Shown here: positions 16,239 to 38,384 of the stretch, one piece after another
Numbering within the stretch: the first letter of the stretch is position 1
How the letters are laid out: each line of letters starts with the position of its first letter
Origin: Vicinamibacteria bacterium
GTDB lineage: Bacteria; Acidobacteriota; Vicinamibacteria; Marinacidobacterales; Marinacidobacteraceae
Reading direction: 5' to 3'
NCBI GenBank assembly: GCA_963668695.2
Contig: CAXXLQ010000004.1
Span: forward strand, 2,528,001 to 2,592,000
DNA: 64,000 bases
Translations under genes and position numbers: made by a program
The notes under the pieces: generated by a model
Databases searched by the model: none
The model's input: the letters and a program-made list of their open reading frames with translations, nothing else
Told to the model about the DNA's origin: nothing

Positions 16239-18464
16239 TTGCCCGGAATCACCCCGGATACCGAGGTCCGTTTCCTTCCGGGGGTCGGGCCCCGGCGCGC
16301 CGCCGCGCTCGCCGAAATAGGAGTGTTGCGGGCTTCGGACTTCCTGCTGCGGCTGCCTTTCCGCTACGAGGATCGGAGCGAGCACCGCCAGACCGCCGAG
16401 CTCGTCGACGGCGAAGCCGCGGCAGCGGAAGTGGTCGTCGCTTCGCTCAGCGTCCGCCCTACGCGGCGGCGGAACCTGAAGATCGTCGAGTTGCGCGGCC
16501 ACGACGCGAGCGGCCCGGTCAAGGCGACCTGGTTCAACCAGGTGCACCTCAAGCAGATCCTGAGACCGGGGCAGCGGGTGCTCCTGTTCGGGAAAGTCCG
16601 CCGTCCGGTCGCCGGAGGGGTCCCTGAATTCGCAAATCCGAGGTACGAACTCGTCACCCCGGACCGTGACCCCGATCCCGCGGGCCCCGGGACGGCAGGC
16701 CCCGGGATTGGCGACCCGGCGCCTTGGGATTCCGGCGTTCCCGCGGCGTCTTCCGAGAGCGTTTCCCCGGATTCGTCTTCCCCGTCCGGCGCGCACGCCG
16801 GCCGCATCGTGCCGATCTACGAGCGGGTCGGGTCGCTCACCCCGCGACTCCTCCGCACCATCCTGCATCGGCTGCTGGACGGCGGCGACGCGGTAGGGCC
16901 CGGCTATCTCCCCGAGGAACTGGTGGCGCGGATGGGGCTGCCGCCCCGGCGGAAGGCGCTCGAAGAAGTGCATTTCCCCCCGGACGGCGCCTCGCTCGCG
17001 GAACTCGACCGGAAACGATCTCCCGGCCACCAGCGGCTCATCCTGGAAGAGTTCTTCGTCTTTGCCCTCGGGCTCCAGTTGCGCCGCCGCCAGGACCGGG
17101 TCGGGCGGGCCGGCGGACACACCTTCACCGTGGACGACACGCTCCGCGACCTGGTGCGGCAGGTGCTGCCGTTCCGCCTCACCGGCTCCCAGCGTGCCGC
17201 GCTCGCCACGATCGCGGAGGAGTTCCGCTCCCCGCTCGCCATGCGGCGGCTCCTCCAGGGCGACGTGGGTTCCGGCAAGACGATCGTGGCAGTCATCGCG
17301 GCCCTCATCGTCATCCATCACGGGGCGCAGGCGGCGCTCATGGCTCCCACCGAGGTCCTCGCCGAGCAACATTTCGCAACCATCCGCAGACTGCTCGAGC
17401 CGCATCGCATCCGCGTCGTGCTGCTCACCGCGGGGCTCGGCGCCGGGGAGCACCGCGACACCCTGCGGGCGGTGGCGAGCGGCTGGGCCCAGTTCGTCGT
17501 CGGCACCCATTCGCTCATCCAGGAAGGCGCCCGGTTCCGGGACCTCGGATTCGCGATCGTGGACGAGCAGCACCGCTTCGGGGTCGCCCAGCGGCGCACG
17601 CTGGTGGAACGGGGCGGGGGCGCCGACCTGCTGGTGATGACGGCGACCCCGATTCCCCGCACCCTCACCATGGCCCTGCATGGGGACCTCGATCTGTCCG
17701 AACTCCGCGAGTTGCCTCCGGGGCGGCAGCCGGTGACCACCCTGGTCCGGGATCCGGGAGGGCTTCCCGAGGTGTACGCGCGGGTCCGCGAGGAAGTGGG
17801 GAAGGGCCGGCAGGGTTTCTATGTCTGTCCGTTGATCGAGGAATCGGAGGAGCTGCCGGGCGCCGGGGTCGAGGCCCGTTTCCGGGAGCTCTCCGAGGGG
17901 CCGTTCCGGGGGCTGCGGGTGGATTTCGTGCACGGCCGGGTTCCGGCGTCACGCCGGGAGCAGGTGATGAACGCCTTCGCCGGCGGGGAACTCGACGTGC
18001 TGGTCGCGACGACGGTGATCGAGGTAGGGGTGGATGTTCAAAACGCCACGGTGATGGTGGTGGAACACGCCGAGCGCTTCGGCCTCGCGCAGTTGCACCA
18101 GCTCCGCGGGCGGGTCGGGAGAGGCACCGATCCCGCCACCGCGATCCTGGTGGTGGGAGGAAAGCCGACCGAACTGGCGCTCCGCCGCCTGAAGGTGCTC
18201 GAGGAAACCACCGACGGATTCCGGATCGCCGAGGAGGATCTCGCGATCCGGGGCCCCGGAGACTTCCTCGGTACCCGGCAATCGGGGATCCCGCCGTTCC
18301 GGGTGGCCGACATCATCCGGGATGCCGACTTCTTGCGCCTCGCCCGCAAGGAAGCGAGTGATTTCCTGGCTTCTCCCGGGCTCGAAACGGCCGAGGGACG
18401 GCGAATCCTCGAACACGTCCGGGAGACCTGGGGCGAGCGCTTCGGTCTGACGGCCGGCGGGTGA
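16239..18464 (+). CDS. recG: ATP-dependent DNA helicase RecG
   Basis: RLLQGDVGSGKT, DEQHRFG, MTATPIPRTL, QLHQLRGRVGRG, DGFRIAEEDLAIRGPGDFLGTRQSG. Confidence 0.97.
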   Translation: MPGITPDTEVRFLPGVGPRRAAALAEIGVLRASDFLLRLPFRYEDRSEHRQTAELVDGEAAAAEVVVASLSVRPTRRRNLKIVELRGHDASGPVKATWFNQVHLKQILRPGQRVLLFGKVRRPVAGGVPEFANPRYELVTPDRDPDPAGPGTAGPGIGDPAPWDSGVPAASSESVSPDSSSPSGAHAGRIVPIYERVGSLTPRLLRTILHRLLDGGDAVGPGYLPEELVARMGLPPRRKALEEVHFPPDGASLAELDRKRSPGHQRLILEEFFVFALGLQLRRRQDRVGRAGGHTFTVDDTLRDLVRQVLPFRLTGSQRAALATIAEEFRSPLAMRRLLQGDVGSGKTIVAVIAALIVIHHGAQAALMAPTEVLAEQHFATIRRLLEPHRIRVVLLTAGLGAGEHRDTLRAVASGWAQFVVGTHSLIQEGARFRDLGFAIVDEQHRFGVAQRRTLVERGGGADLLVMTATPIPRTLTMALHGDLDLSELRELPPGRQPVTTLVRDPGGLPEVYARVREEVGKGRQGFYVCPLIEESEELPGAGVEARFRELSEGPFRGLRVDFVHGRVPASRREQVMNAFAGGELDVLVATTVIEVGVDVQNATVMVVEHAERFGLAQLHQLRGRVGRGTDPATAILVVGGKPTELALRRLKVLEETTDGFRIAEEDLAIRGPGDFLGTRQSGIPPFRVADIIRDADFLRLARKEASDFLASPGLETAEGRRILEHVRETWGERFGLTAGG

Positions 18465-18532
18465 GGGGGGACGGGCGGGGCCGACGGCGCACTACGCCAA
18501 AGCCACGCCACCGCTGTGGTAGGCTGGCGGAA

Positions 18533-18640
18533 GGCGCGCGTGACACGGTGCGATTCCGTCAGCCGTAGCACGTCCCAACCGGGACGGAGCGCCATGTGGG
18601 GTTGCCGGCTTCGGTCGGAGGACGGGCCCCACCGCGTGCC
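18533..18640 (-). ncRNA. Candidate structured RNA downstream of the PBECR-like nuclease gene
   Basis: Four stems closable by eye plus complementary loops CCGTC/GACGG; no family assigned. Confidence 0.45.
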
Positions 18641-18649
18641 ACCCGGTAC

Positions 18650-19477
18650 TTACCGCGCGTCGCGGACCAAAACGCCGCGCTTCTGTTCGCTCCGCAGGTT
18701 ACGTGTGTGTGACTTGTGGAAGGTGACGAGATAGATCTCGTCCTCTTCGGTTCGTTTCACGACTGCCCTAACAGCCTGTGGTGAAACCCACGCGGCGTTC
18801 GAGCGGCGATCCATCCCGCCTGAACCGCGCCGCTTTGCGGCGCTCTGCGTTGCGTTTCGGTCGAAATACACCCGGTATTCCTCCCTCACGCGCCTTGGCA
18901 GCCGGGCGCCTCACCGCTCTCGGCGCTCACCCGGGTTCCACCACAGGCTGTTATACCAACGACCGTGGAACTTGCCGAAGAAAGAAAGACTCCGACGGCC
19001 AGGGTGCCGGATCGCCGTACCGTGTTCGACCAAGGTCGGTAGCCGGCCGTAGTCCGTCACACTGAGGTCCGGGTGCTTGACGAGTTGCTTGAACGCCGTG
19101 TCCGGGGAGAGGCGGACGACCCGCGACCACGCTTCTGTTGGCTCGGTGGCGGATCCCAGGGCTTCATGTGCCCCCTTGGGAAGAAGGGCGACAGGTAGTT
19201 CGGCGAGGCCCGGTTCCATCTCCGGCCTCATCTCGCTCGCCTCGGGATGTTTCTGCCGCACAGCCCTGATCTGGGCATCGAAGCATCGGAACACGGGTCC
19301 GCAGCAGACCGACCGGACGGCGGTGCGCGCCAACGCGTCGTCGGGCTCTCCGTCCAGTTTCGTGATGAATCGGTTCATCGCTGCGGGCGATGGATCGGTA
19401 ACCAGGGATGCCAGCGCGGACTCATATTCGTCCGCGGCGCCAGCCTCCGTCGCGGGTAAATCCTCGCCGGGTTTCAC
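18650..19477 (-). pseudogene. PBECR2-like (barnase/RelE-fold) nuclease-domain gene interrupted by a MITE
   Basis: VRLSPDTAFKQLVKHPDLSVTDY...GRWY|RAVVKRTEEDEIYLVTFH resembles MuF-associated PBECR domains; excising the MITE restores a 214-aa ORF. Confidence 0.65.
18771..18951. mobile_element. MITE family A copy, 181 bp, without the 18-nt motif
   Basis: TIRs plus TA duplication; lies inside a gene. Confidence 0.92.
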
Positions 19478-19720
19478 GGCGGCGCCTGGTTGGACATGGG
19501 CGCGGGAGACCTCGCCGGGGCGAGGATCTGTCAGCCCGTCAGGGGTTACGGCTGTCGGCGGCAGGCATGGACGGCGAAGAGGGAGAGGCGCAGCGCAACC
19601 TCCCGTGCTCGCCGGGCCTCACTTGGCGACCGCTCCCGCTGGATTCCCCTGCGCCACGGAGAACATTGGCTCTGGTGGGGCGAGGCCACAAAGCCCCGGT
19701 GGAACGGAGGGCGACATGAA

Positions 19721-20914
19721 CTACCCCGCTCTGGCTTCCGGCACCATCGCCGTGGCCGGCTCGTCCACCTCCTCCCGGACGGCGTCGTCCCCAGCCCCTA
19801 CGGGGTGGACGCCATCGCCATCCGCGGTTGTCCGCAGCAGTGCGTCTCCGAACGGATCCGGCGCTTGCGGGACAACCTCCATGTCGTGCGTTGCGGTCGC
19901 GACCGCTTCGGGAAACCAACTGTCCCGCGTTCCCTGGTGAATCACGCTCGCCCTGGCGGCCTCCCGGGTGAGAAATACCGCGAACTCGTGCGGGCCGCCG
20001 CTGCGCCAACGCCGCACGGTTTCGGGGAGCGCCATTGGGTGTTCCATCGCTCGATCACCGATCACACAGCCTGGCCGGTAGGTGCGGAGGGCGTTTCCGA
20101 AGACGCTGTATTTCCGCCCGACGCGGTCGGTCAGCGCGTACGTCATGGGACCGGTCAGAACGGCCACGTGGGCAAGCCCGACCGTCCGGTGCGCGAGATC
20201 CCACGCATCCAGCGGGGCCGATTCCGGATTCGTTTCCTGGGGACCCAGTCCGATGCCGAAAACCGGGCGGGTCCGATGCCCGCTCCCGATGAGGTGGATC
20301 AGCCCCTCCACGCCTTCCTCGTTCTGGATGATCCACGGGGCCGGCAGCAGACGCCAGCCGTAGTCCGACAGTCCTGGGGAACGGGTCAGCCAGCGCACGA
20401 TCCCGGGTACCCACAGCGGGGCCGTCCGTTGGCGAAGGTGGCGCTGGGGCGCAAGGAGCGTGGCGCGGAGGTAGCTCGTCGATCCCGAACGGAAGAGGAT
20501 GACGACCGCCTTCCAGGCGGCCAGTCCGGCGTTGGCGCCTGCCTCGAGCGACACGCCGAAATAGCGACTCGCCCCCGCTTCCCGGTCGACGGCTCGTACG
20601 ATGGCGCCAGCCGATCGATGTTGCTCGACATGCAGTCTTTGTCCGTCCGGACGGGAAACCCCGTCGAATGCGGGGGGCAGGGGGCCCACATGCGCCTCCA
20701 GCCAGCGAAGAACCTGATCCCGGGATCGGTCGAACTCGCCGCCCTTCCCGTCCGCCGCGATTTCGGCGGATACCGCCACCGCGGGCCGGAGTTCCGAGCC
20801 GCTCGCGAAAGTGTCCGGCAGCCGCGCCCGGCGGACGCGGGGAGTCTCGATGGCATTCGGATCGAGCCCGGCTTGGTTCCGGGCGGGATCAGGAACGGGC
20901 AGAGAAACGGGCAT
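19721..20914 (-). CDS. Hypothetical protein (accessory islet)
   Basis: 397-aa ORF with GGAG SD; globular-looking core LAHRTVGLAHV...SVFGNALRTYRPG...HP. Confidence 0.75.
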   Translation of the reverse strand: MPVSLPVPDPARNQAGLDPNAIETPRVRRARLPDTFASGSELRPAVAVSAEIAADGKGGEFDRSRDQVLRWLEAHVGPLPPAFDGVSRPDGQRLHVEQHRSAGAIVRAVDREAGASRYFGVSLEAGANAGLAAWKAVVILFRSGSTSYLRATLLAPQRHLRQRTAPLWVPGIVRWLTRSPGLSDYGWRLLPAPWIIQNEEGVEGLIHLIGSGHRTRPVFGIGLGPQETNPESAPLDAWDLAHRTVGLAHVAVLTGPMTYALTDRVGRKYSVFGNALRTYRPGCVIGDRAMEHPMALPETVRRWRSGGPHEFAVFLTREAARASVIHQGTRDSWFPEAVATATHDMEVVPQAPDPFGDALLRTTADGDGVHPVGAGDDAVREEVDEPATAMVPEARAG

Positions 20915-20985
20915 GATGGCTCCTGGGAGAACGGGATGGGGCTCTGGACGAACCGGGTTGTGGTGCGAAAGCGGGAGGTCCTGCG

Positions 20986-21633
20986 TTGAGCGTGCGGATC
21001 GCGGGCGGATCGCTCGCCGGCCGCGTGTTGACCGGGCCGCCGCGTCCCGGGGGGCGACGGGGCACCGCTCCGGACGGAGCCCGGCCGACGGCCGCAAGAC
21101 TCAGGAAGAGCCTCTTCACGGTGCTGTCCGACGAATTGGTCGGGGCTCGAGTGCTCGATATCTGCGCCGGGGTGGGAACGCTCGGCTTCGAGGCGATCTC
21201 CCGGGGCGCTCGTGAGTGCGTGTTCGTGGAACGTTCCCCGCGGATGGCCCGGCTGGTCGAACGAAATGCCGAGCGCCTTGCCGTGGACACCTTCAAGCTG
21301 GTGGTGGCGGATGCGCTTCGCGAACTGCGACGGCTCCGCCGCGCCGGGAGGGGATTCGACGTGGCCTTCCTGGATCCTCCGTGGGAAAGCTGGGAGGCAG
21401 GAACCGGCGTACAGCTGCTCGCCGAGGCCATCGGCCTCGCGCCGCTGGTGGTGGCGGAGCACCGTTGTTCGTGGGTGCCTCCGCTTAGGGTGGCCGCTGG
21501 CGCAGATGACGAGTCGAACCCGGCGATGCCTGCGCCCGCAGGACTGAAGACCCGCACCACGACCGCCGGAGATGGAGCGTTCTCGCTGTACCGGCGGGAG
21601 GGGGCGGCTGAAGAACGGCGCACAATTTCCTAG
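20986..21633 (+). CDS. rsmD: 16S rRNA m2G966 methyltransferase
   Basis: VRIAGG, RPTAARLRKSLF, LDICAGVGTLGFEAISRGA, FLDPPW; precedes coaD. Confidence 0.9.
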   Translation: MSVRIAGGSLAGRVLTGPPRPGGRRGTAPDGARPTAARLRKSLFTVLSDELVGARVLDICAGVGTLGFEAISRGARECVFVERSPRMARLVERNAERLAVDTFKLVVADALRELRRLRRAGRGFDVAFLDPPWESWEAGTGVQLLAEAIGLAPLVVAEHRCSWVPPLRVAAGADDESNPAMPAPAGLKTRTTTAGDGAFSLYRREGAAEERRTIS

Positions 21634-38283: not shown

Positions 38284-38331
38284 AGGGCCGTAGCTCAGCC
38301 GGTTAGAGCGCCTGTCCGATAAACAGGAGGG
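38284..38331 (+). pseudogene. 5' two-thirds of tRNA-Ile(GAT), no T-arm
   Basis: TAGCTCAGCCGGTTAGAGCG D-arm; CCTGT-CCGATAA-ACAGG anticodon arm; no GTTCRA T-loop follows. Confidence 0.65.
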
Positions 38332-38384
38332 ACGAGGCGACGCACGGGTTCCGTCTGGTCCGGGTTCACGCCATTCTTTACGAC

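Follow-up and report, generated by a model that had tools for sequence, protein, structure and literature searches.

A conserved pseudoknotted small RNA adjoining MuF-C genes in Vicinamibacteria and viral sequences, a candidate partner of a predicted phage-derived RNase

The window analyzed here is a stretch of 64,000 nucleotides from a Vicinamibacteria genome, and the features of interest lie between recG (16239..18464, plus strand; Pfam DEAD, Helicase_C, RecG_wedge and RecG_dom3_C) and rsmD (20986-21633, plus strand), which flank a 2.5-kb insert with two minus-strand genes. Positioned 68 nt past the stop codon of recG, and probably on the same strand, is a structured small RNA of about 108 nt (18533..18640). 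Beyond it, and convergent with recG, lies an ORF assigned below to the phage domain MuF-C, which is present in two pieces. The 5′ piece (18954..19477, minus strand) is 98% identical to the intact 214-aa protein P0001 and carries a conserved K-Q...H-P-D-L...Y block, and the 3′ piece (18650..18768, minus strand), running to a TAA at 18650-18652, matches residues 175-214 of the same protein. The ORF is split by a MITE-like repeat of 185 bp with 21-nt terminal inverted repeats (18769..18953), of which at least 40 near-full-length copies with 91–100% identity occur in the genome, identified from 580 first-look candidates. A contig from an RNA library joins 18767 to 18951 with the MITE missing, indicating that a MITE-free allele exists in nature, and in the sister genome G027 the MuF-C orthologue is uninterrupted and the RNA differs at 1 of 108 positions. 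In the window the RNase gene is broken and the RNA is intact; the local module, with its RNase gene interrupted by the MITE, may be decaying. The MITE itself is apparently flanked by TA, is very abundant in RNA-library contigs, and has other copies in loci L003-L031.

The second minus-strand gene, gene A (19721..21097), is HEC-07-like, matching PADLOC profile PDLC04161 at E 2.1e-41 over profile positions 20-302 of 553; an overlap of the ORF with the beginning of rsmD leaves its start codon uncertain, and the gene had no Pfam match. Gene A resembles the N-terminal two domains of HEC-07 (AdoMetDC-like and thioredoxin-like), and its homologues are found upstream of MuF-C paralogues in four other loci (L041, L043, L054 and L059). 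P0001 had no PADLOC match, from which it appears that the RNase part of the insert is not HEC-07's own. Two further observations concern the surroundings. The spacer between gene A and the MuF-C ORF (19478-19720) contains a 16-nt unit once here and three times in G027 (L032, 2140-2290), where a second short spacer unit is also duplicated; and the sole Rfam match in the window is a tRNA at 38284-38363 on the plus strand, scoring 30 bits against a gathering score of 29.

Judged from its relatives, the interrupted ORF encodes on its own what is the C-terminal domain in phage MuF, namely MuF-C of the PBECR clade. Paralogues in related genomes, at 30–40% identity, constitute the C-terminal part of Phage_Mu_F (PF04233) proteins, and PF04233 was detected in 8 of 9 upstream ORFs scanned from viral or genomic loci, in L080 as well, and by eye in L034, L042 and L049. 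Relatives of MuF are annotated as “minor head protein and DNA pilot”, i.e. as a virion protein. In the portions of Iyer et al. (2017, PMC5512222) that treat this domain, MuF-C is placed in the PBECR clade, the domain of phage Mu itself is described as inactive and “probably RNA binding”, and orthologues are considered likely RNases; the corresponding portions of Jamet et al. (2017, PMC5576092) name the same domain Ct_MAD, give its function as unknown, and restrict it to temperate phages. Neither the ORF pieces nor the intact orthologues matched any Pfam family at E up to 10, PBECR models included, and MuF-C may be a domain with no Pfam model of its own; searches of the ORF against Pfam, PHROGs and NCBIfam gave nothing meaningful.

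An AlphaFold model of P0001 built with 31 sequences had pLDDT 87 and pTM 0.84. Its residues 118-206 found their best matches, all of them weak, among BrnT, RelE-type toxins, CdiA-CT domains and colicin D, with VIA Z not above 5.0 in any case (7vd7, Z 5.0; BrnT 3u97, Z 4.9, with Foldseek probability 1.00 and E 0.028) and Foldseek E of at least 0.025 for all BECR-type matches, none being at or below 0.001. The residues expected of MuF-C and PBECR domains are present and are lost in the relatives that have no RNA: across the 31 sequences K130, Q131, H135 and Y143 are invariant, and T182 and S191 are at least 90% conserved. The preliminary description of this locus had called the product a PBECR-like nuclease. 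Membership in the MuF-C/PBECR clade stands, on the PF04233 fusions and on the relevant portions of Iyer et al. (2017, PMC5512222), but the Pfam PBECR models do not match and the fold matches are weak; the earlier label is right in substance, its enzymatic meaning being a prediction.

On the minus-strand reading, the TAA of the ORF (18652-18650) is followed by a 9-nt spacer and then by the element, which begins at 18640. Helix P1 pairs GGCACGCG (18640-18633) with CGCGCGCC (18540-18533) at 7 of 8 positions, relatives having 8 of 8; P2 pairs GTGGGG (18632-18627) with CCCCAC (18601-18596); P3 is CGTCCC-GGTT-GGGACG (18586-18571); and P4 pairs ACGG (18566-18563) with CCGT (18548-18545). All of the helices listed in the preliminary description are thus present in the sequence, together with an inner hairpin, P2a (18618-18605), that its list did not include. 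The kissing loop that it proposed holds as well, CCGTC at 18625-18621 being complementary to GACGG at 18560-18556, and this loop-loop helix covaries across copies. Read 5′ to 3′ on the plus strand, the order of helices is P1, P4, P3, and P2 enclosing P2a. The element is single-copy in its 4.1-Mb genome and bears no relation to the local 185-bp repeat, as had been noted. It is multibranched and has no terminator-like site, in agreement with the earlier statement that it is not a terminator, and differs from the single G+C-rich hairpin with a U-tract that defines the intrinsic type. There is no ORF between the element and convergent recG, so that the nuclease gene is, as described, followed by no gene for protein immunity.

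A fold no better than that of shuffled sequences had been named beforehand as evidence against the element, and for the single sequence this is what was found: the minus strand folded at -46.7 kcal/mol (z +0.29, with 117 of 200 shuffles equally good) and the plus strand at -56.5 kcal/mol (z -1.43, with 15 of 200 shuffles equally good). The shuffle test is uninformative in DNA of 68% G+C, and we judge the RNA to be real despite that result because of comparative covariation. The other outcome named as adverse, that homologues would have no conserved structure beside them, did not occur, since the regions downstream of homologues contain the element and it covaries there. An element of about 108 nt was found downstream of paralogues of the ORF in G026, G007 and G008, with obvious compensatory changes; among 27 copies from 4 genomes, 91.1% of cells were paired, compared with 36–52% when partners were slid. 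In a set of 103 distinct copies (A5), 95.9% were paired, with 523 double-change cells versus 43–79 in slid controls. Covariation in this set is seen in P1, P2a, P3 and the loop-loop helix, the last being 99.6% paired with 4 of 5 pairs covarying, so that the RNA forms a pseudoknot, as type III antitoxin RNAs do. The DNA pattern by which A5 was gathered fixed parts of P2 and P4, and their invariance in that set is partly by construction; a second sample (A7) was chosen via the protein alone to remove this bias. Its 57 distinct RNAs were 95.0% paired, with 255 double-change cells versus 19–48 in slid controls, and here P2 does covary, changing from U-A to C-G and from G-C to A-U, with CACCGUGUC invariant. 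Nine unpaired bases are invariant. The weakest helix is outer P3 (TGGCGC/GTGCTA, with 2 G-U pairs), which is 79% paired and could not form on the plus strand. RNAalifold on a first MAFFT alignment nested the pseudoknot and lost P2, P3 and P4, for which reason hand-set structures and model-based alignments were used; alignments fitted to a model favor the structure, and the compensatory changes are still plain in the raw sequences.

The covariance model, which matches the window copy at 121.7 bits, identified the element in 7 of 28 genomes of the family, with 1, 1, 2, 1, 1, 13 and 34 copies, and in 1 of 150 other sampled genomes of the phylum. A loose DNA pattern gave mostly chance matches in genomes, and a stricter motif filter was applied; with the two-motif pattern and this filter 83 further loci were obtained, mostly on IMG/VR contigs of 30–45 kb and otherwise in records titled Pseudomonas, Caulobacter, Desulfovibrio and Rhodospirillales. 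Locus L198, also picked up by the pattern, was dropped as a false positive. A blastn search of 50,697 cultured-phage records with two variants of the RNA returned nothing real, and the element was not found in E. coli genomes. The Rfam search that had been suggested yielded no known family: Rfam 15 had no match to the element on either strand, at gathering score or at E up to 10, nor at E up to 1 to four other copies or to the type-2 element described below. On the comparative evidence, the element is a real, uncatalogued and widespread class of structured small RNA of about 90–112 nt.

The association of this RNA with MuF-C is close. The MuF-C ORF ends 0–45 nt before the element in 64 of the 83 pattern-found loci, the remaining 19 having short flanks or no ORF picked by the script, and in most phage copies P1 abuts the stop codon by 0–8 nt. 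When 80 viral loci were selected by MuF-C alone, the RNA was directly downstream in 69, with 2 loci cut by the contig end and 9 having no RNA. The K-Q-x3-H motif was kept in all 69 of the RNA-bearing loci versus none of the 9 testable RNA-less loci, and the VVKAT block was likewise replaced in 9 of 9; these nine fall into about three sequence groups and thus represent few independent events. Phage DMS3 gp28 has neither RNA nor motif, the next gene abutting gene F, and the D3112/DMS3-type Pseudomonas phages, the closest cultured relatives by protein, do not carry the RNA. There are exceptions to the linkage, namely the tandem-domain proteins of L039 (G008) and L044 (G007) and the locus L037 (G009), which keep the motif with no model match nearby. 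Joint presence, and joint loss with the predicted catalytic residues, suggest that the RNA is of consequence only beside a MuF-C that is active as an RNase or binds RNA. The pairing of nuclease and RNA proposed in the preliminary description is accordingly borne out as a tight one, and we are confident that this is a genuine RNA gene functionally tied to MuF-C.

Both strands allow the helices to form. The preliminary description had read the RNA on the minus strand, as lying 3′ of the gene, and this is probably wrong. In viral copies, the 4-nt loops of P2a and P3 are GNRA, UNCG or CUUG in 61 of 69 cases when read on the plus strand versus 0 of 69 on the gene strand, and acidobacterial 4-nt loops belong to stable classes in 33 of 60 versus 6 of 60; the P2a loop in the window is UUCG on the plus strand. 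A TAnnnT box ends 5–8 nt before P1 on the plus reading in 41 of 46 acidobacterial and 38 of 57 viral copies, compared with 0 of 46 and 0 of 57 for an equivalent box upstream of P1 on the gene strand. In 32 of the 41 acidobacterial copies the box is exactly 7 nt from P1, often with TGn. These statistics point in the window to a candidate extended -10 element, TGG plus TAGGCT (18517..18525, plus strand), also ending 7 nt before P1; a generic sigma-70 promoter scan made no call at the element or the box. The 12 nt that follow P1 contain five or more U in 31 of 57 viral copies on the plus reading versus 11 of 57 on the gene strand, this U-rich run being the complement of the Lys-rich tail of MuF-C, and acidobacterial copies have no U-tract after P1. 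The balance of G-U against A-C in covarying helices, 28 versus 49, picks no strand. Folding energy hardly separates the strands: the lower energy belongs in 71 of 103 copies to the plus strand, which is also the G-richer one, and the mean difference is 1.5 kcal/mol. The outer P3 G-U pairs and the U-G pair of P4 favor the gene strand. Contigs of the RNA library on this region consist only of the MITE and one low-depth contig (278 nt, depth 5, covering 18557-18767 and 18951-19017), which shows neither strand nor ends and may be DNA carry-over, and the uncovered parts are uninformative. On balance we regard the plus strand as highly probable for function. The hairpin caps and the TAnnnT box together argue for a small RNA gene on that strand convergent with the RNase gene, and the element is probably such a separate gene, as opposed to the 3′ tail of the RNase gene.

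In two genomes the RNA is amplified. In G007 and G008, MuF-C genes are followed by 4–7 RNA copies with periods of about 160–520 nt, the spacers of which are mutual duplicates. Orphan copies occur among genes for amidohydrolase, ribonucleotide reductase, TonB and aspartyl-tRNA synthetase, some of them retaining the last 20–30 nt of the MuF-C ORF and some being followed by a gene-strand hairpin and a T-rich run. This pattern suits an RNA that acts in trans and has outlasted the protein gene better than it suits a mobile repeat. Several other arrangements were seen in the related genomes. In L059 (G026), about 70–100 nt of the recG 3′ end is found on both sides of the element (locus 1501-1637), and the N-terminus of protein P0004 is that recG end read in reverse frame, which continues into half of a MuF-C domain; the recG 3′ end looks like a repeated insertion or recombination site for such modules. 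A DUF5131 (phage Gp37/Gp68) gene lies beside a small RNA array in both L073 (G007) and L083 (G008).

A second, unrelated element of about 150 nt (A8) occurs at L041:470-631(-), L048:1943-2104(+), L080:1216-1377(+), L054:1793-1954(-) and elsewhere. This conserved type-2 element is found after more divergent MuF-C paralogues (VVRLPxRIMxKQ type), shares arrays with the first element, and has a long-range helix with compensatory changes; in L048 it had no Rfam match. The proteins of L039 (G008) and L044 (G007) have two tandem MuF-C domains, both with K-Q-x3-H, and neither type of element was found downstream of them. In L037 (G009) the MuF-C stop codon is followed by a shorter, dissimilar stretch that an 8-bp GC stem closes; it could be a third type of RNA, the locus extending only 281 nt on that side.

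The RNA is a strong candidate for the partner or the antidote of MuF-C. That it is specifically an antidote or immunity factor of the PBECR RNase domain is our tentative reading, quite possible if still short of probable. The RNA would be made from its own -10 promoter on the plus strand, would fold into a compact globule, and would bind the PBECR domain and keep the RNase inactive. In a phage it would shield the lysogen or producing cell, and the RNase would be freed after packaging and injection; in a defense-type module it would be freed upon infection sensed via gene A. Tandem arrays and orphan copies in related genomes would supply the RNA in excess. A protein-binding RNA made in excess is favored by its compact fold and invariant unpaired bases, by a putative promoter of its own, and by the occurrence of arrays and orphans. 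At this locus a predicted RNase and its RNA appear to have been taken out of a phage and placed behind a HEC-07-like sensor gene, between recG and rsmD. A fuller picture, in which a virion-delivered MuF-C RNase is paired with a constitutive kissing-loop RNA, the pair has been captured as a HEC-07-like defense effector and antidote, and orphan arrays serve as decoys against injected RNases, is more doubtful.

Among alternatives to an antidote, pairing of the RNA, or of read-through, with the 3′ end of the muF mRNA, to which it is fully complementary, would come next. Such cis-antisense action of type I kind, setting MuF-C dosage by cleavage or by blocked read-through into the next head gene, is rather unlikely. 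It would account for a convergent layout with a dedicated -10 box and for a P1 so close to the stop codon in most phage copies, and joint loss with active-type motifs would fit an antidote of any sort; however, plain pairing needs neither a pseudoknot that buries its loops nor nine invariant unpaired bases, and orphans and arrays far from muF genes have no cis target. After it we would rank the RNA as substrate or cofactor, either cut by the PBECR domain to a stable product or carried by it, packed in the capsid and injected with MuF. The same data on linkage and joint loss are consistent with this, MuF is a virion protein, and RNA binding is proposed for MuF-C in the portions of Iyer et al. 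(2017, PMC5512222) on that domain, but many copies per RNase gene suit an excess inhibitor better, and we consider a substrate or cargo role not a likely one.

Improbable, and placed after these, is a gene-strand element, i.e. a part of the muF mRNA, either a structured 3′ tail or a spacer between cistrons, acting as stabilizer, processing site or control on translation of the next gene. A phage late operon must transcribe that strand, several copies have the ribosome site and ATG of the next gene within 25 nt, G-U exceeds A-C in outer P3 (115 versus 20) and P4 agrees, and the hairpin and T-rich run after some orphans are on that strand. Against it, the stable tetraloops of viral copies belong exclusively to the other strand (61 versus 0 of 69), the conserved box can be read as TAnnnT in 42 of 46 acidobacterial copies there versus 2 of 46 on the gene strand, the element is kept where no gene follows, as in the window and in orphans, and a translation spacer would not be expected to disappear jointly with residues of the protein. 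Least probable by far is a selfish dispersed repeat or DNA-level site with no role as RNA. The 34 copies in G008 and 13 in G007, some amid housekeeping genes, and the duplicated recG 3′ end that flanks one G026 copy could be taken that way, yet compensatory changes affect five helices including the pseudoknot, tetraloops are of RNA type, no terminal inverted repeats or target duplications were seen, most carriers are single-copy, and orphans keep the last nucleotides of the MuF-C ORF as decayed modules would.

The preliminary description had likened the locus to type III toxin-antitoxin systems. Like ToxIN, CptIN and TenpIN, the module would place the gene of an endoribonuclease, predicted as such here, beside that of a pseudoknotted RNA and do without a protein antidote, and it shares with them a phage or defense context and, in relatives of this locus, tandem RNA arrays. 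The differences are substantial. The predicted toxin fold is BECR/RelE-like, not ToxN-like, and no Pfam family was matched at E up to 10, the ToxN/AbiQ, CptN and TenpN families among them; the RNA is of about 108 nt with four helices, in contrast to repeats of 36–45 nt; and it is downstream, probably convergent and with its own promoter, whereas the type III antitoxin is upstream on the same transcript. Instead of an upstream tandem repeat there is one copy downstream in the window and a single copy in phages, and even the arrays of G007 and G008 are downstream. As membership, then, the parallel fails on toxin family and gene order, and the resemblance is one of logic only.

The bsrG/SR4 and txpA/RatA systems, which we take to be type I pairs of Bacillus prophage-like regions with convergent antisense RNAs overlapping the toxin 3′ end, are similar in that, in a prophage setting, the gene for a convergent small RNA adjoins the toxin gene at its 3′ end or runs into it. 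Toxins of that sort are small membrane peptides, and their RNAs act by base pairing. Here, in contrast, the partner is a predicted RNase domain; orphan copies and a conserved tertiary fold set the RNA itself apart.

Relative to the MuF-C or Ct_MAD domain as treated in portions of PMC5512222 and PMC5576092, the ORF is the same domain, with the same PF04233 fusion and occurrence in temperate Mu-like phages, but here it stands alone behind a defense-type gene and has an RNA. No associated RNA is mentioned in those portions of Iyer et al. (2017, PMC5512222) and Jamet et al. (2017, PMC5576092), “non-coding” occurring 0 times in the text of the latter. HEC-07, as summarized by Payne et al. (bioRxiv 10.1101/2024.01.29.577857), combines AdoMetDC-like, thioredoxin-like and C-terminal RelE-type RNase domains in one polypeptide, and in the same summary is among the seven of nine candidates that lowered plaquing in E. 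coli. Gene A corresponds to its AdoMetDC-like and thioredoxin-like part only, its match ending at position 302 of the 553 of the three-domain profile, and a RelE-fold RNase effector is common to both systems, here as a prediction. HEC-07 has its own RelE domain and, in that summary, no reported RNA, unlike the separate phage-derived MuF-C gene and RNA of this locus. MuF polymorphic toxins (Jamet et al. 2017, PMC5576092; FEBS Open Bio 2025, PMC12226406) are alike in having a MuF carrier, a variable C-terminal effector and a producer that needs protection; protein immunity is encoded downstream of them, whereas here the RNA alone is downstream, with no ORF. The literature consulted on RNAs of MuF, PBECR and Mu-like phages does not describe this RNA, counting a 224-motif survey apart from its supplements, the motifs of which are held in Rfam, where there was no match. 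We consider it a new RNA class and, with the predicted RNase, a new variant of the logic of RNase-plus-RNA modules.

Few head proteins of temperate phages are as common as MuF. What its C-terminal domain does has been a question ever since the domain received its name, with the function of Ct_MAD given as unknown in the portions of Jamet et al. (2017, PMC5576092) on the domain, and an RNase or RNA binder predicted in those of Iyer et al. (2017, PMC5512222). An RNA that co-occurs with the predicted catalytic residues provides a direct handle on that function and is likely to be a ligand, substrate or inhibitor of the domain. On the soberest reading, this is a new and widespread class of RNA with a well-supported pseudoknot, fit for inclusion in Rfam and for structural work. 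If it is indeed an antidote, the logic of RNA antitoxins would reach BECR/RelE toxins and proteins injected from virions, and the locus analyzed here would represent a defense system built from a phage-derived pair of enzyme and RNA.
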